The translations under genes and the position numbers were made by a program. From NCBI RefSeq assembly GCF_056746865.1, contig NZ_CM163382.1: DNA of 64,000 nucleotides. One strand, 5' to 3'. The notes beneath the pieces were generated by a model. The model was not told the DNA's origin. It was given only the letters and a program-made list of their open reading frames with translations, and made no database searches. Of the stretch, positions 3,057 to 45,412 are shown piece by piece (positions within the stretch are counted from its first letter, which is position 1; each line of letters starts with the position of its first letter).

Positions 3057-4472
3057 ATGGAAAACTTTAAACATCTCCCTGAACCGTTCCGGATTCGTGT
3101 TATTGAGCCAGTAAAACGTACCACTCGCGCTTATCGTGAAGAGGCAATTATTAAATCCGGTATGAACCCGTTCCTGCTGGATAGCGAAGATGTGTTTATC
3201 GATTTACTGACCGACAGCGGCACCGGGGCGGTGACGCAGAGCATGCAGGCCGCGATGATGCGCGGCGACGAAGCTTACAGCGGCAGCCGCAGCTACTATG
3301 CGTTAGCCGAGTCAGTAAAAAATATCTTTGGTTATCAATACACTATTCCGACTCACCAGGGCCGTGGTGCAGAACAAATCTATATTCCGGTACTGATTAA
3401 AAAACGCGAGCAGGAAAAAGGCCTGGATCGCAGCAAAATGGTGGCGTTCTCAAACTATTTCTTTGATACCACGCAGGGCCATAGCCAGATTAACGGCTGT
3501 ACCGTGCGTAACGTCTATATCAAAGAAGCCTTCGATACGGGCGTGCGTTACGACTTTAAAGGCAACTTTGACCTCGAAGGATTAGAGCGCGGCATTGAAG
3601 AAGTTGGCCCGAATAACGTGCCGTATATCGTTGCAACCATCACCAGTAACTCCGCAGGCGGTCAGCCGGTTTCACTGGCAAACTTAAAAGCGATGTACAG
3701 CATCGCGAAGAAATACGATATTCCGGTGGTAATGGACTCCGCACGCTTTGCTGAAAACGCCTATTTCATCAAGCAGCGTGAAGCAGAATATAAAGACTGG
3801 ACCATCGAGCAGATCACCCGCGAAACCTACAAATATGCCGATATGCTGGCGATGTCCGCCAAGAAAGATGCGATGGTGCCGATGGGCGGCTTGCTGTGCA
3901 TGAAAGACGACAGCTTCTTTGATGTGTACACCGAATGCAGAACCCTTTGTGTGGTGCAGGAAGGCTTCCCGACATATGGTGGTCTGGAAGGCGGCGCGAT
4001 GGAGCGTCTGGCGGTAGGTCTGTATGACGGCATGAATCTGGACTGGCTGGCTTATCGTATCGCGCAGGTGCAGTATCTGGTCGATGGTCTGGAAGAGATT
4101 GGCGTTGTCTGCCAGCAGGCGGGCGGTCACGCGGCATTCGTTGATGCCGGTAAACTGCTGCCGCATATCCCGGCAGACCAGTTCCCGGCACAGGCGCTGG
4201 CCTGCGAGCTGTATAAAGTCGCCGGTATCCGTGCGGTAGAAATTGGCTCTTTCCTGTTAGGCCGCGATCCGAAAACCGGTAAACAACTGCCATGCCCGGC
4301 TGAACTGCTGCGTTTAACCATTCCGCGTGCAACATATACTCAAACACATATGGACTTCATTATTGAAGCCTTTAAACATGTGAAAGAGAACGCGGCGAAT
4401 ATTAAAGGGTTAACCTTTACCTACGAACCGAAAGTATTGCGTCACTTCACCGCAAAACTGAAAGAAGTTTAA
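3057..4472 (+). CDS. tnaA: Tryptophanase (tryptophan indole-lyase)
   Basis: Translation from the ATG at about 3057 ([26 protein letters not shown]...) matches remembered K-12 TnaA through ...FTAKLKEV. The track ORF starts 15 nt earlier at 3042 (MKDYV), which is probably not the native start. Confidence 0.95.
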
Positions 4473-29206: not shown

Positions 29207-29779
29207 TTATTTCTTATATTCGACAGTAAATTGTGAATCGGCGTTCGCCGTACCCGCCGTTACAGTTGCATTGGTTGCCACATAGCGTGCAATAAACTTC
29301 ATTTCAGCCTTGCCTTCAGCGTCGATAGCGGTATAGGCAGAATCGTTATAAAGTTTAACCTGCGAGTTATCTGACTGGTTAAAAATACGAATACCGACAC
29401 CCGTTGCCGCAATCGCTTGTCCTGTACCGGTAAAATCGCCAGGGTTGCCCGCTGTAAGCGGCGTACCCACTTTCAGGTCGCCGTCGCCGCCAGGCGCTTC
29501 TGTACCATCAAAACGAACGGCTGCCTGAGTGTAGGTTGCCGGGCACTTTTCAAGTTTAATACTGAACTGCTGTGGTGACGCCAGACTACCTACACCTGAA
29601 AAAGCATTTTTACTGACTTTACCCAGTGGTACGGTTTGATCGGCTGTATCGGAGGTAACTTCACAAGTAGTGTCGACAATTTCACCGACGAAGTGAACAA
29701 CACCATCTTCTGCCAGTGCATGTCCGGCCAGCATTAAAGATGCCAGAGTGAATGCACCGCCTATAATATTACGCTTCAT
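29207..29779 (-). CDS. Major fimbrial subunit (type 1 / Lpf-like pilin)
   Basis: 190-aa ORF with signal peptide (MKRNIIGGAFTLASLMLAGHALA), a conserved Cys pair and a C-terminal beta-strand motif (FTVEYKK) typical of chaperone-usher pilins. First gene of the cluster, with an AT-rich region upstream. Confidence 0.85.
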   Translation of the reverse strand: MKRNIIGGAFTLASLMLAGHALAEDGVVHFVGEIVDTTCEVTSDTADQTVPLGKVSKNAFSGVGSLASPQQFSIKLEKCPATYTQAAVRFDGTEAPGGDGDLKVGTPLTAGNPGDFTGTGQAIAATGVGIRIFNQSDNSQVKLYNDSAYTAIDAEGKAEMKFIARYVATNATVTAGTANADSQFTVEYKK

Positions 29780-29999
29780 AAAAACTCCATTGATATAATA
29801 TATCCTTTACCATGAATCATCACTTATATTAATAAGTGTATTTTTGATCCAAAGGAATAGTACACCAAAGAGACAACTTTATCTAAAAATAATATTAATT
29901 ACTCAATCTTAAATATAAATTTATTATTTAAATATTATTAAAACAGCAAGAAATCAAGTTTATTATCAGACATTAGCAATAATTCAGAATATATTTATA

Positions 30000-30750
30000 T
30001 CAATGGGCATATGAATAATGGAATTATTGATATCACTTATAATAAATATCCTCCGGCATAGCCGGAGGTTTTTCAAATGCGCCTATAAGGCTCTCTTACC
30101 AGCCGCGCCCTAACAGGCGCACACGATCTGACATTTGCATCCAACTTCGTTACTTACGGCCCGTAAACGGGCTGCCCGGATAGGGAATCGATAACTGCTC
30201 TCCCATTTTATCCTCTTCAAGCTGGTGCTTTATGTAATCCTGTATCTTCGCCGTGTTCTTACCCACTGTATCGACGTAGTACCCTCTGCACCAGAACTCC
30301 CTGTTCCTGTATTTGAATTTCAAATCACCAAACTGCTCGTAAAGCATCAGACTGCTTTTCCCTTTCAGATATCCCATAAACCCGGATACGCTCATTTTAG
30401 GCGGGATCTCCACAAGCATATGGATATGATCTGCACAGCATTCAGCTTCCAGAATCCGTACGCTTTTCCACTCACACAGCTTTCTCAAAATACTGCCTAT
30501 TGCTCTACGCTTCTCTCTGTAGAACACCTGTCTTCGGTATTTTGGCGCAAAAACTATGTGATATTTACAGTTCCATCGGGTGTGCGCTAAGCTCTTTTCG
30601 TTCCCCATTGGGACCCCCTTTTGATTTCTTGTTTGACACTTGCAGTTGCCAGACCGCAAGGTGTTTTAACAAATCAAAAGGGGTTTTAATAACTGGCTCA
30701 AAGCTGAAAGCTTTCCGGAACCCCCAGCCTAGCTGGGGGTTTTCTGTGCA
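30000..30750 (-). mobile_element. IS200/IS605-family insertion element (single tnpA); boundaries approximate
   Basis: Contains an IS200-type HUH transposase ORF flanked by sub-terminal hairpins (cctccggcatagccggagg at about 30050; cccccagcctagctggggg at about 30722). Exact ends were not determined. Confidence 0.6.
30150..30608 (-). CDS. tnpA: IS200-type transposase TnpA (HUH, Y1 family)
   Basis: MGNEKSLAHTRWNCKYHIVFAPKYRRQVFY...ADHIHMLVEIPPK... carries the HUH motif (HIH) and the conserved IS200 TnpA N-terminus. The track ORF starts 17 codons earlier at 30659. Confidence 0.88.
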   Translation of the reverse strand: MGNEKSLAHTRWNCKYHIVFAPKYRRQVFYREKRRAIGSILRKLCEWKSVRILEAECCADHIHMLVEIPPKMSVSGFMGYLKGKSSLMLYEQFGDLKFKYRNREFWCRGYYVDTVGKNTAKIQDYIKHQLEEDKMGEQLSIPYPGSPFTGRK

Positions 30751-30759
30751 CAAAAAAGG

Positions 30760-30792
30760 GCCGCCGGTCGGCAGCCCTTTTCTATCAACGAG
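30760..30792 (-). terminator. glmS rho-independent terminator
   Basis: Minus strand reads aaaagggctgccgaccggcggccctttttt immediately after the glmS stop. Confidence 0.75.
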
Positions 30793-30797
30793 AGATA

Positions 30798-32627
30798 TTA
30801 CTCAACCGTAACCGATTTCGCCAGGTTACGCGGCTGGTCAACGTCGGTGCCTTTGATCAGCGCAACGTGGTAAGCCAGCAGTTGCAGCGGAACGGTGTAG
30901 AAGATCGGTGCAATAACCTCTTCCACATGCGGCATCTCGATGATGTGCATGTTATCGCTACTTACAAAACCCGCATCCTGATCGGCGAAGACATACAACT
31001 GACCGCCACGCGCGCGAACTTCTTCAATGTTGGATTTCAGTTTTTCCAGCAATTCGTTGTTCGGTGCAACGACGATAACCGGCATATCGGCATCAATCAG
31101 CGCCAGCGGACCGTGTTTCAGTTCGCCTGCAGCGTAGGCTTCAGCGTGAATGTAAGAGATCTCTTTCAGCTTCAATGCGCCTTCCAGCGCGATTGGGTAC
31201 TGATCGCCACGGCCCAGGAACAGCGCGTGATGTTTGTCAGAGAAATCTTCTGCCAGTGCTTCAATGCGTTTGTCCTGAGACAGCATCTGCTCAATACGGC
31301 TCGGCAGCGCCTGCAGACCATGCACGATGTCATGTTCAATGGAGGCATCCAGACCTTTCAGGCGAGACAGCTTCGCCACCAGCATCAACAGCACAGTTAA
31401 CTGAGTGGTGAATGCTTTAGTGGACGCCACGCCAATTTCCGTACCGGCATTGGTCATCAGCGCCAGATCGGATTCGCGCACCAGAGAAGAACCCGGAACG
31501 TTACAGATTGCCAGCGAACCAAGGTAACCCAGCTCTTTCGACAGACGCAGGCCCGCCAGGGTATCCGCGGTTTCGCCAGACTGTGACAAGGTGATCATCA
31601 GGCTGTTACGGCGCACGGCAGATTTGCGATAGCGGAATTCAGAGGCGATTTCGACGTCGCACGGAATACCTGCCAGCGATTCAAACCAGTAGCGGGAAAC
31701 CATACCGGAGTTATAAGAAGTACCACAGGCGAGGATCTGAATATGCTCAACCTTCGACAGCAGTTCGTCGGCGTTCGGTCCCAGCTCGCTTAAATCAACC
31801 TGACCGTGGCTGATGCGCCCGGTAAGGGTGTTTTTGATCGCGTTCGGTTGTTCGTAGATCTCTTTCTGCATGTAGTGGCGGTAAATACCTTTATCACCCG
31901 CGTCATATTGCAGATTGGATTCGATATCCTGACGTTTTACTTCCGCGCCAGTTTTATCGAAGATGTTTACCGAACGGCGAGTGATTTCCGCAATATCGCC
32001 CTCTTCAAGGAAGATAAAGCGACGAGTCACTGGCAACAGCGCCAGCTGGTCAGAAGCGATAAAGTTTTCGCCCATGCCCAGGCCAATCACCAGCGGGCTA
32101 CCAGAACGTGCCGCCAGCAGGGTATCCGGGTGACGGGAGTCCATGATCACTGTACCGTACGCACCACGCAGTTGCGGGATAGCACGCAGAACAGCCTCAC
32201 GCAGAGTACCGCCTTGTTTCAGCTCCCAGTTCACCAGATGGGCAATCACTTCGGTGTCGGTTTCAGAAACGAAGGTATAGCCACGCGCTTTTAACTCTTC
32301 ACGCAGCGGTTCATGGTTTTCGATGATGCCGTTATGCACCACCACAATGTGTTCAGAAACATGCGGATGCGCGTTAGCTTCTGAAGGTTCACCGTGGGTC
32401 GCCCAGCGAGTATGAGCAATACCGGTGCCGCCATGCAGAGGATGTTCTTCCGCTGCCTGAGCCAGCATCTGGACTTTACCGAGGCGACGCAGGCGGGTCA
32501 TATGACCTTCTGCATCAACAACGGCCAGACCGGCAGAGTCATATCCGCGGTATTCAAGACGACGTAAACCTTCAAGAAGGATTTCTGCTACATCACGTTG
32601 CGCGATCGCGCCAACAATTCCACACAT
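30798..32627 (-). CDS. glmS: Glutamine--fructose-6-phosphate aminotransferase GlmS
   Basis: 609 aa with N-terminal MCGIVGA (catalytic Cys2) and C-terminal ...LAKSVTVE. Confidence 0.96.
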
Positions 32628-42700: not shown

Positions 42701-44590
42701 TTATGCGCTACGACGCAGCATACCCTGTTTTTTCAGCCACACCAGCAGAATGGAGATGGCCGCAGGCGTGACGCCAGAAATACGCGAAGCCTGACCGATA
42801 GAGGCCGGTTTGTGATCGTTAAGTTTGGCGATCACTTCGTTAGAAAGACCGGATACCTGGCGGTAATCCAGCGTCGCTGGTAGCAGGGTGTTCTCGTTAC
42901 GCAGCTGCTTTTCGATCTCATCTTGCTGGCGCGCGATATAACCTTCGTATTTAACCTGAATCTCAACCTGTTCCGCCGCCTGTTCGTCTGTCAACGCAGG
43001 GGCAAACGGCGTCAGCGTGGTTAATTTTTCATAAGTCATTTCCGGACGACGCAGCAGATCTTCACCACTGGCTTCACGGGAAAGTGGCGCAGTCAGGTGA
43101 GCATTCACTTCGGCTGCAGCTTCCGCCGACGGGGTTACCCAGGTCGATTTCAGACGCTGACGCTCACGCTCGATATTCTCAAGTTTCTCGTTAAAGCGCG
43201 CCCAACGTTCGTCATCCACCAGGCCCAGTTCACGACCGATTTCAGTCAAACGCAGATCCGCATTATCTTCGCGCAGCATCAGACGATATTCTGCGCGCGA
43301 AGTAAACATACGATACGGTTCTTTGGTTCCTAAAGTGCACAGGTCATCAACCAGTACGCCGAGATACGCCTGAGAACGCGCCGGAGCCCAACCTTCTTTG
43401 TCAGCAGACAGACGGGCAGCGTTAAGACCAGCCAGCAAACCTTGCGCAGCGGCTTCTTCGTAACCGGTAGTGCCGTTAATCTGACCAGCAAAGAACAGCC
43501 CCTGGATAAACTTGCTCTCCAGCGTCGGTTTCAGGTCGCGTGGATCGAAGAAGTCATACTCAATGGCATAACCCGGACGCACGATCTTCGCGTTTTCCAT
43601 CCCCTGCATGGAGCGGACGATTTGCATCTGCACATCGAACGGCAGGCTGGTGGAGATACCGTTCGGATAAATTTCGTTTGAGGTCAGCCCTTCCGGTTCA
43701 AGGAAGATCTGATGCTGATTTCTGTCGGCGAAGCGCATGACTTTGTCTTCGATCGACGGGCAGTAGCGTGGGCCGACACCTTCGATCACCCCTGCATACA
43801 TTGGGCTACGATCGAGGTTACTGCGGATCACATCATGGGTTTTCTCGTTGGTATGGGTGATATAACACGGCACCTGCTGTGGATGCTGGGACGCATTACC
43901 CATAAACGAGAATACCGGCATTGGGTTATCGCCATGCTGTTGCGCCAGCACGCTGAAGTCGATAGTACGCGCATCAATACGCGGCGGTGTCCCGGTTTTC
44001 AGACGACCAACGCGCAGCGGCAGTTCACGCAAACGGCGAGAGAGCGGAATGGACGGCGGATCACCAGCACGACCACCGCTGTAGTTATCCAGACCGATAT
44101 GAATTTTACCGTCGAGGAACGTCCCAACGGTGAGCACGACGGCTTTGGCACGGAACTTCAGTCCCATTTGGGTAACAGCACCAACCACGCGATCGTTTTC
44201 GACAATAAGATCTTCAACCGCCTGCTGGAAGATCATCAGGTTCGGTTGGTTCTCCAGCGCCGTACGTACCGCCTGCCGGTAGAGCACACGATCCGCCTGA
44301 GCACGGGTAGCGCGAACCGCTGGTCCCTTGCTTGCGTTTAGTATCCTAAACTGGATACCCGCCTGATCGATCGCTTTCGCCATCAGACCGCCGAGTGCAT
44401 CCACTTCTTTTACCAGATGTCCCTTCCCAATACCGCCGATCGCCGGGTTGCAGCTCATCTGCCCCAGAGTGTCGATATTGTGTGTCAAAAGCAGAGTCTG
44501 TTGACCCATACGCGCCGCGGCCATCGCGGCCTCGGTGCCTGCATGACCCCCGCCAATGATGATGACGTCAAAAGGATCCGGATAAAACAT
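42701..44590 (-). CDS. mnmG: tRNA uridine-5-carboxymethylaminomethyl modification enzyme MnmG (GidA)
   Basis: 629 aa; N-terminal FAD-binding motif ([15 protein letters not shown]). Confidence 0.96.
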
Positions 44591-44678
44591 GGTGATTGCC
44601 TCGCATAACGCGGTATGAAAATGGATTGAAGCCCGGGCCGTGGATTCTACTCAACTTTGTCGGCTTGAGAAAGACCTG

Positions 44679-44950
44679 GGATCCTGGGTATTAAAAAGAA
44701 GATCTATTTATTTAGAGATCTGTTCTATTGTGATCTCTTATTAGGATCGCACTACCCTGTGGATAACAAGGATCCAGCTTTTAAGATCAACAACCTGGAA
44801 AGGATCATTAACTGTGAATGATCGGTGATCCTGGACCGTATAAGCTGGGATCAGAATGAGGGGTTATACACAACTCAAAAACTGAACAACGGTTGTTCTT
44901 TGGATAACTACCGGTTGATCCAAGCTTCCTGACAGAGTTATCCACAGTGG
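44679..44950. other. Chromosomal replication origin oriC (DnaA boxes R1-R4, three AT-rich 13-mers, GATC cluster)
   Basis: 13-mers gatctatttattt (44701-44713), gatctgttctatt (44717-44729) and gatctcttattag (44732-44744); DnaA box R1 tgtggataa (44758-44766) and R4 ttatccaca (44938-44946); dense GATC sites. Near-identical to my memory of the K-12 minimal oriC, located between mnmG and mioC. Confidence 0.95.
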
Positions 44951-44968
44951 ATCGCACGATCTGTATAC

Positions 44969-45412
44969 TTATTTGAGTAAATTAATCCACGATCCCAGCC
45001 ATTCTTCTGCCGGATCTTCCGGAATGTCGTGATCAAGAATGTTGATCTTCAGTGTTTCGCCTGTCTGTTTTGCACCGGAATTTTTGAGTTCTGCCTCGAG
45101 TTTATCGATAGCCCCACAAAAGGTGTCATATTCACGACTACCAATACCGATTGCGCCAAAGCGGACCGCAGAAAGATCGGGCTTCTGTTCCTGCAATGCT
45201 TCATAGAAAGGAGAAAGGTTGTCCGGAATATCTCCGGCACCGTGGGTTGAGCTGATAACCAGCCAGATCCCCGAGGCAGATAAATCTTCCAACAGCGGAC
45301 CGTGCAGCGTTTCGGTGGTAAAACCCGCCTCTTCCAGCTTTTCAGCCAGGTGTTCTGCCACATATTCGGCACCGCCGAGGGTGCTGCCGCTGATAAGAGT
45401 GATATCTGCCAT
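44969..45412 (-). CDS. mioC: Flavodoxin-like FMN-binding protein MioC
   Basis: 147 aa (MADITLISGSTLGGAEYVAEHLAEKLEEAGF...), adjacent to oriC. Confidence 0.94.
   Translation of the reverse strand: MADITLISGSTLGGAEYVAEHLAEKLEEAGFTTETLHGPLLEDLSASGIWLVISSTHGAGDIPDNLSPFYEALQEQKPDLSAVRFGAIGIGSREYDTFCGAIDKLEAELKNSGAKQTGETLKINILDHDIPEDPAEEWLGSWINLLK

Follow-up and report, generated by a model that had tools for sequence, protein, structure and literature searches.

The strong hairpin at positions 30050-30068 of the 64-kb stretch of DNA analysed here (the window) is most probably the subterminal right-end (RE) hairpin of an intact IS200C element of the IS200/IS605 family and, by homology with IS608 and ISDra2, the presumed binding site of the transposase TnpA (probability about 0.9). 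The hairpin lies inside the insertion sequence, is absent from the corresponding empty site and is invariant among copies of the element; its structure, flanking sequences and distances are conserved throughout the family, and the TnpA of the window copy is intact. These observations directly support the identification.

The RE hairpin is in this sense an already known feature of a known element. This status rests in part on the descriptions in ISfinder and TnPedia, which we take to include the RE hairpin of IS200. It rests further on statements at the level of the family (PMC6006769, PMC7290912). A full-text literature search on the IS200 RE hairpin returned only the biochemistry of IS608 and ISDra2 together with work on the left end (LE) of IS200, and data on IS200 TnpA binding or cleavage at the RE hairpin were not found in the literature searched. 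With this identification, an apparent orphan terminator becomes a standard part of a mobile element, to be annotated neither as a host terminator nor as the 3′ end of a small RNA or as a fimbrial site.

The hairpin, the insertion site and the IS200C element

The sequence at 30050-30068, CCTCCGGCATAGCCGGAGG, forms eight perfect pairs, seven of which are G-C, closed by a 3-nt loop. TTTTT follows directly 3′ on the plus strand at 30069-30073, so that the strong hairpin with a T-run reported in the preliminary description is confirmed. On the tnpA-sense (top) strand, the minus strand of the window, the hairpin reads CCTCCGGC-TAT-GCCGGAGG. Folded as RNA in a 61-nt context it reached −16.6 kcal/mol (z = −3.1; 2/200 shuffles were as good), and by itself as RNA −14.8 kcal/mol. 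As single-stranded DNA, the fold of either strand gave −9.9 to −10.0 kcal/mol with z = −4.5 to −4.8, a value reached by 0/200 shuffles. The 19-mer is single in the window, the chance expectation being 0.01 matches at two or fewer mismatches. A scan of 27-33 kb for terminator-like patterns detected 4 against 5.8 expected; the class as such is not enriched, so that it is the strength and the conservation of this particular stem that are significant and not the class of pattern to which it belongs. Read on the minus strand, the same palindrome was likewise scored as terminator-like in the pattern scan, its tail there being ATATTTATTA. An Rfam scan of 28-33 kb returned over the hairpin only a sub-threshold match to the cyanobacterial PsrR1 (22.9 bits against a gathering threshold of 42, E = 0.51), which we consider a chance match driven by the terminator-like stem.

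The locus is part of an E. coli chromosome with the order pstS-lpfDCBA(O113)-IS200C-glmS, followed by glmU and the atp genes, all on the minus strand. The immediate neighbours of the hairpin, lpfA (29207-29779), tnpA (30150-30608) and glmS (30798-32627), are thus all on the minus strand, in agreement with what had been noted from the sequence at the outset. The IS is inserted between the glmS terminator and the upstream region of lpfA-O113. The lpfA start codon is 271 nt away from the hairpin, which lies upstream of it in an AT-rich region of regulatory appearance. When positions 29780-30800 were used as a 1,021-bp query, 100% identity to E. coli strain CFSAN061770 was found. Of 5426 complete E. 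coli genomes, no more than 3 had the IS at the lpfA-glmS position, a rarity which points to a recent insertion between glmS and lpfA.

Strain NT1N25 displayed the same lpfA-glmS arrangement without the IS, and the hairpin is absent from its spacer. The empty site of this strain reads ..cagttat|aaaaaagggccaccgg.. (gttat, then aaaaaagggcc, directly around the insertion point), while the filled site of the window reads ..cacttat, then the element from AATAAATATCCTCCGG to CTGTGCAC, then aaaaaagggccgccgg.. on its other side. The comparison of the two sites revealed a clean 711-bp insertion at that exact point, without target duplication. The limits of the element are uncertain by at most 2 nt, TT being common to the right tip and the target. 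The features of the element and of the host sequence adjoining its left end are the following, all on the minus strand of the window:

30041-30751, minus strand: complete IS200C, 711 bp, delimited by IS200C copies, the empty site and end alignments
30041-30049, minus strand: RE tail ATATTTATT (top strand), which ends the element; its terminal TATT at 30041-30044 is the presumed CR; based on copies, the empty site and conservation in 64 elements
30050-30068, minus strand: RE subterminal hairpin of IS200C, presumed TnpA site, equivalent to the IPR of IS608; based on sequence, fold and conservation
30069-30073, minus strand: A5 run (top strand), the plus-strand T5, abutting the hairpin foot on its 5′ side; the GR position of IS608 corresponds to 30069-30072, with a putative guide function
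30081-30091, minus strand: second small conserved RE hairpin, GCCT-TAT-AGGC (top strand), detected by RNAalifold in 23 diverse right ends, with compensatory changes at 3/4 pairs
30150-30608, minus strand: tnpA, intact, encoding a 152-aa Y1 HUH transposase, annotated as WP_000526135.1 of the IS200C family
30618-30741, minus strand: structured region of the IS200 left end and tnpA 5′UTR, matching Rfam STnc490 over its full length (146.4 bits, E = 4.9e-31)
30719-30741, minus strand: LE hairpin, sister of the RE hairpin, with the core CCCCCAGC-TAG-GCTGGGGG at 30721-30739, lengthened by AA/TT
30752-30757, minus strand: host T6 run (top strand) abutting the LE, U-tract of the glmS terminator and presumed target and left cleavage site (TTTT); present in the empty site, with TnTT in most of 65 elements
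30758-30777, minus strand: stem-loop of the glmS intrinsic terminator, host sequence outside the IS, −16.3 kcal/mol, then UUUUUU

The element showed 98-100% identity to hundreds of annotated IS200C copies (spanning about 717 bp), and full-length plasmid copies were 100% and 98.6% identical to it. With tnpA encoded on the minus strand, the RE is the end with the lower coordinates, and the hairpin is located inside the element at 9 nt from the right tip. Alignment of the IS200 ends, which the preliminary description had recommended, placed the hairpin within 30041-30751 and not outside. Its suggestion of a subterminal hairpin of an IS200-like element was therefore borne out, as regards the position inside the element close to the tip, the invariance among copies and the compensatory changes described below; recognition by TnpA, which it also named, is probable by analogy with related elements. 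There are no terminal inverted repeats in IS200C, the tips GTGCAC... and ...ATATTTATT being unrelated. The transposase matched the Pfam family Y1_Tnp (PF01797) with E = 3.8e-38 and is homologous to the solved TnpA proteins of IS608 (E = 4e-19) and ISDra2 (E = 2e-16). In the TnpA alignment, the HIH motif and the catalytic tyrosine of YI[KR]xQ were invariant.

Both subterminal hairpins are present in IS200C, the RE hairpin at 30050-30068 and the LE hairpin at 30721-30739, and the position of the latter matches that published for the terminator at nts 12-34 of IS200 (PMC4513863, PMC5435999). On the top strand, the LE reads GAAAA-CCCCCAGC-TAG-GCTGGGGG and the RE GAAAAA-CCTCCGGC-TAT-GCCGGAGG. The two hairpins share the geometry of an 8-bp stem with a 3-nt loop, the foot CCnC...GnGG and the A-run on the 5′ side. 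They differ in two stem pairs, both by compensatory changes (C-G to T-A and A-T to G-C), and in one loop base. The LE stem extends to 10 bp through AA/TT, whereas the RE stem is not lengthened. A mini-IS200 containing RE bp 566-707 was previously shown to transpose (PMC4513863).

Conservation in IS200C copies and in relatives of the IS200 group

Seven IS200C copies from six other loci were compared with the window copy. They are located in or next to a prophage tail-fibre gene/lom, sugE/ecnB, adeD/uhpT (two strains), caiF/carB, hypT and sbcB/plaP, and homology was confined to the stretch from AA(T/C)AAATAT-CCTCCGG to CTGTGCAC. The hairpin and the T5 run were invariant in 7/7 of these copies. 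The elements IS200F of Salmonella and IS1541A of Yersinia, with 92.5% and 87.4% nucleotide identity to the window copy, respectively, carry an RE hairpin identical to that of the window copy together with the same A-run and ATATTTATT tail. IS200, IS200C, IS200F and IS1541A follow a common plan consisting of an LE hairpin, a stem-loop sequestering the ribosome-binding site, a single tnpA and a structured RE. Salmonella IS200 is quoted as 707 bp long (PMC4513863) against the 711 bp obtained here from the empty-site comparison, which is no substantive difference. In relatives from C. perfringens, S. aureus and E. faecium, the sequence is different and an equivalent hairpin is found in the same place.

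By scanning one genome per species with the TnpA alignment, 80 further loci were retrieved, ranging from Proteobacteria to Firmicutes and Tenericutes. Among the 85 scanned elements of the IS200 group, 71 had hairpins with an 8-bp stem and a 3-nt loop at the LE as well as at the RE, separated by 646-706 nt. Relative to the reading frame, the usual position was about 130 nt before the start codon for the LE hairpin and about 80 nt past the stop codon for the RE hairpin.

An alignment of 64 distinct RE sequences, which are phylogenetically related to one another, had 99.2% of its cells paired. This value is inflated, since the scan demanded at least 7/8 pairs, and it is therefore partly circular; the variety of compensatory changes and the fixed position are unaffected by the filter. 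Double-sided changes were detected at 4/8 stem pairs in a total of 70 cells. The pair types recorded included A-T, C-G, T-A and G-C for one stem position, and for a second one G-C, C-G, A-T and T-A. Covariation scored 0.389 compared to 0.077 in shuffled alignments (0/500 reached the observed value) and at most 0.059 in slid registers. RNAalifold applied to 23 whole right ends found the same helix unaided. The stem arms of LE and RE were identical at 5.82/8 positions within an element and at 5.39/8 between elements, a difference for which 3/5000 permutations were as high; such likeness within elements is what would be expected if one protein reads both hairpins. A tnpA-less RE remnant adjoining ehxC, on an E. 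coli plasmid in which an IS3-family transposase is also encoded, had 4/8 pairs left. From this decay it follows that the structure is maintained only while the element is active.

The conservation extended to the flanks of the hairpin. In the 64 elements, the pattern GAAAAA-[hairpin]-ATATTTATT was conserved on the top strand, and conservation collapsed 9 nt past the foot. At least four A were found in the 5 nt 5′ of the foot in 58/64 distinct elements, 34 of which had AAAAA. The right tip is accordingly placed 9 nt from the foot across the IS200 group, with TATT as the terminal 4-mer. At the LE, the first two nucleotides of the element are GT, which usually precede the core hairpin by 12 nt.

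Transcription termination and other explanations

The same hairpin could have been selected mainly as an intrinsic terminator of the IS acting on both strands, an explanation which we consider possible and clearly short of even chances. On the plus strand, where the tail is U5, it would block outside transcription running antisense to tnpA. On the minus strand, where the tail is AUAUUUAUU, it would end the tnpA mRNA and shield the host genes downstream, in this case lpfA. The hairpin passed the terminator-like scan in both orientations, and five of the eight nucleotides that follow its stem of −14.8 kcal/mol are U on either strand (plus, UUUUUCAA; minus, AUAUUUAU). Beside the stem, the minus-strand tail AUAUUUAUU is weaker than the UUUUU of the plus strand. 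The RE tail is better than the sense tail of the LE, in which 0/8 positions after the 10-bp stem are U. Termination is nonetheless experimentally supported for the LE hairpin, a bidirectional Rho-independent terminator which reportedly stops about 85% of upstream transcripts (PMC5435999, PMC4513863); a counterpart of this evidence for the RE hairpin was not found in the literature searched. On the minus strand, the tnpA stop codon is followed after 81 nt by the hairpin, which could therefore end the tnpA mRNA. Of the 64 elements, 45 had five or more T among the 8 nt that follow the stem on the sense strand, and 38 had TTT directly beside the stem on the antisense strand.

The plus-strand side of this explanation requires transcripts that reach the hairpin, and neither a plus-strand gene nor a convincing promoter feeding it was detected. 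No plus-strand ORF of at least 40 aa ended upstream of the hairpin, in line with the lack of an upstream plus-strand gene noted in the preliminary description. The only plus-strand ORFs upstream were one of 22 aa at 29844-29912 and one of 31 aa spanning the IS boundary. The plus-strand promoter scan returned just two weak 9/12 matches in AT-rich DNA, below the shuffle count. Furthermore, a terminator needs neither the 8-bp/3-nt geometry nor the CCnC...GnGG foot, nor a tip ending in TATT at a distance of 9 nt; all of these are predicted for an element of the IS608 type. Because a fixed geometry, an LE-like foot, the 9-nt spacing and TATT are unneeded for termination, we do not regard termination as the main explanation. 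Early speculation took the terminal hairpins of the family for terminators, and a mechanistic role in transposition was shown afterwards (PMC7290912). The look of a plus-strand terminator, to which attention had first been drawn, holds as a description of the sequence; as an explanation of the T-run it gives way to the conserved A-run at the guide position, of which the T-run is the complement. The T5 run would thus represent the complement of the right guide rather than a U-tract selected for termination. A secondary terminator activity of the RE hairpin is plausible from its sequence, if somewhat under an even chance, and a terminator role could also contribute to the conservation of the hairpin.

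In practice, terminator predictors will call both end hairpins in every IS200 copy, and masking of the element avoids systematic false positives. E. coli genomes contained up to 35 matches each to the query, mostly copies and fragments of IS200.

An origin of the hairpin in the lpf/glmS spacer itself is very improbable. The preliminary description had considered it as the relic terminator of a deleted gene or as an insulator of the fimbrial promoter region, and both proposals fail on the empty lpfA-glmS site, from which the hairpin is missing and to which it came with the IS. Its position upstream of lpfA in AT-rich DNA is what a native origin has in its favour, but the hairpin moves with IS200C to unrelated loci and is found in IS200 relatives of other phyla, and lpfA transcription on the minus strand runs away from it. 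That the hairpin is a functionless chance palindrome is just as improbable, for although terminator-like patterns are not enriched in the 6-kb region, the DNA fold stands far outside the shuffled sequences (z = −4.5 to −4.8), compensatory changes have kept the structure at its place in dozens of divergent elements and decay was seen only in the dead remnant.

Presumed role in transposition and target choice

The role of the hairpin as a TnpA site may be depicted from what is established for IS608, in which TnpA binds top-strand subterminal hairpins and a guide tetranucleotide pairs with the cleavage tetranucleotide (PMC3201880, PMC6006769). In IS608, each hairpin foot has its guide 4 nt to the 5′ side; the right cleavage site is internal to the element, at a distance of 10 nt 3′ from the foot, and the host target serves as the left cleavage site (PMC3201880). 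By analogy with this system we infer TnpA binding, the assignment of guide and cleavage sequences and the strand specificity for IS200C. By homology with IS608 and ISDra2, the hairpin would function as single-stranded DNA, formed by the tnpA-sense strand (the minus strand of the window). A TnpA dimer would hold the RE hairpin with one monomer and the sister hairpin of the LE with the other. The four A on the 5′ side of the foot would serve as the guide, bringing the TATT that ends the element 9 nt beyond the foot into position for cleavage. The corresponding arrangement at the LE would select a TnTT target, here in the T-run of the glmS terminator.

Like the IPR of IS608, the RE hairpin of IS200 is a top-strand subterminal hairpin by the right tip with a guide position 5′ of its foot and a sister hairpin at the LE. 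In both systems the target tetranucleotide abuts the LE and the transposases are homologous, and the distance to the tip is 9 nt in IS200 compared to 10 nt in IS608. The IS200 stem differs in being a perfect 8-bp palindrome without a bulge, whereas the IS608 hairpins are imperfect, and a perfect palindrome offers no evident basis for the choice of strand. The presumed guide of IS200 is AAAA with the cleavage sequences TATT and TnTT, in contrast to GAAT/TCAA and AAAG/TTAC in IS608. The distance from the LE tip to the hairpin is 12 nt in IS200, counted to the core hairpin, compared to 19 nt in IS608. At the LE of IS200, the guide registers AAAA and nGAA are indistinguishable, and the two A beside the core stem can pair with TT.

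Likeness is also apparent to the REP sequences and their TnpA-REP (RAYT) proteins, in which a GC-rich extragenic hairpin with a 5′ guide tetranucleotide is recognised by a Y1 HUH protein (PMC6006769). REP hairpins can, in addition, affect transcription termination and mRNA stability (PMC6006769). The IS200 hairpin occurs once per end of an autonomous IS; REP sequences, in contrast, are repeated in the host in high copy number, have GTAG as their guide and are served by a domesticated transposase.

The host 4-mer outside the LE tip was of the form TnTT, with TTTT in 35, TGTT in 9, TCTT in 6 and TATT in 4 of 65 elements. Counted by position, T was present at −4 in 59/65, at −2 in 62/65 and at −1 in 63/65. 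The host 4-mer at the window copy is TTTT and derives from the glmS terminator. The habit of the IS200 group to land just after host terminators was statistically reported before (bioRxiv 10.1101/2025.07.22.666184). Our strict terminator-detection script gave 40/68, which is a lower bound since imperfect stems were missed, among them the glmS terminator of the window itself. The A-run at the guide position (AAAA), the TnTT flank, the TATT tip and the insertion after terminators together provide a simple, testable rule for the target choice of IS200.

It is further conceivable, at odds slightly below even, that the RE hairpin, in the same way as the LE hairpin, terminates transcription in both directions. 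Each IS200 copy would then form a two-sided insulator, here between glmS/tnpA read-through and the lpfA promoter region, and the AAAA guide with its TnTT target would explain the landing after T-tracts of host terminators across phyla.

DnaA boxes at 44758 and 44938 and a change of sign in the GC skew at about 44-48 kb marked an oriC-like site in the window at about 44.8 kb. The IS is found about 14.7 kb to the left of this site, in a region whose lagging-strand template is the minus strand. The top strand of IS200C is thus on the lagging-strand template, a single observation with a prior of 50%; this orientation has been reported to be the preferred one in the IS200/IS605 family (PMC5027513).

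Host terminators at the left-end junction

A GC-rich host hairpin with a T-run, that is, an intrinsic terminator, directly precedes the left end of IS200-group elements among the compared loci (L003-L095). With a strict script, a terminator was detected in 40/68 left-end flanks compared with 5/68 and 3/68 right-end flanks; the left-end count is a lower bound, as the script missed several more terminators because their stems are imperfect. The junction 4-mer on the host side of the left-end flanks is TnTT. Terminator enrichment at insertion sites has been reported statistically in a 2025-26 preprint (bioRxiv 10.1101/2025.07.22.666184). We infer that the AAAA run in the guide position of IS200 is linked to insertion after host terminators. 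In the window, the junction and the adjoining left end comprise:

30752-30777, left-end flank of IS200: glmS terminator, with its full T6 tract kept
30618-30741, minus (tnpA-sense) strand: match to Rfam STnc490, with the left-end hairpin at one end and the RBS stem-loop at the other

STnc490/art200 was described as antisense to the tnpA 5'UTR (Ellis et al. 2015); the Rfam STnc490 family may differ from art200 in strand or extent.

Covariation and small hairpins at the right end

In the covariation alignment of right-end hairpins from 64 distinct elements, column 8, the third base 5′ of the hairpin foot, and column 30, the first base 3′ of it (window equivalents 30071 and 30049), were found to co-vary, G occurring with G in 7/7 elements and A with A in 52/55. 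The 3′ tail changes as well, from ATATTTATT to GTT(A/C)CT(T/A)TT. The column 8/30 covariation in the IS200 group resembles the base triples of IS608, where the guide tetranucleotide 5′ of the hairpin foot interacts with bases 3′ of the foot, and may be the effect of one clade alone. The 81-nt spacer between the tnpA stop and the right-end hairpin holds more conserved small hairpins on the minus strand:

30081-30091, minus strand: GCCT-TAT-AGGC hairpin, 3/4 pairs co-varying across 23 elements
30100-30125, minus strand: upstream GCGCC...GGCGC stem, recognised by eye and poorly aligned

Surroundings of the element and a plasmid remnant

The lpfA upstream region is overall about 93% identical to that of the empty-site strain NT1N25, and the BLAST alignment ends at 30000. 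Its last approximately 40 nt before the IS (30000-30040) differ from positions 3222-3255 of the empty-site locus by substitutions and a small indel, which looks like ordinary strain divergence and not an effect of the insertion. A weak promoter-like site (29967-29995, plus strand) and a match to the cyanobacterial Rfam family PsrR1 (29988-30073, plus strand) could together be misread as a 70-nt sRNA in which DNA upstream of lpf is joined to the IS hairpin; at 22.9 bits and E = 0.51 the PsrR1 match is below threshold and was treated as chance.

The chromosomal oriC appears to lie within the window at about 44600-45000, a placement based on DnaA boxes and a switch in the sign of the GC skew between about 44 and 48 kb.

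44758 and 44938: DnaA boxes

A 629-aa ORF on the minus strand (42701-44590), which we provisionally take to be mnmG/gidA, adjoins this oriC-like region. The IS200 is located about 14.7 kb to the left of the oriC-like region, and the lagging-strand template carries the top, tnpA-sense strand of the element.

An IS200 right-end remnant of 141 bp with about 92% identity was found upstream of ehxC on the E. coli plasmid pTA144 (NZ_CP028606.1; locus L096, 401-541), immediately preceded by an IS3-family transposase gene. Other plasmids with this 141-bp match likewise have the remnant behind an IS3-family transposase gene. The right-end hairpin of the pTA144 remnant has decayed, with 4/8 pairs left.
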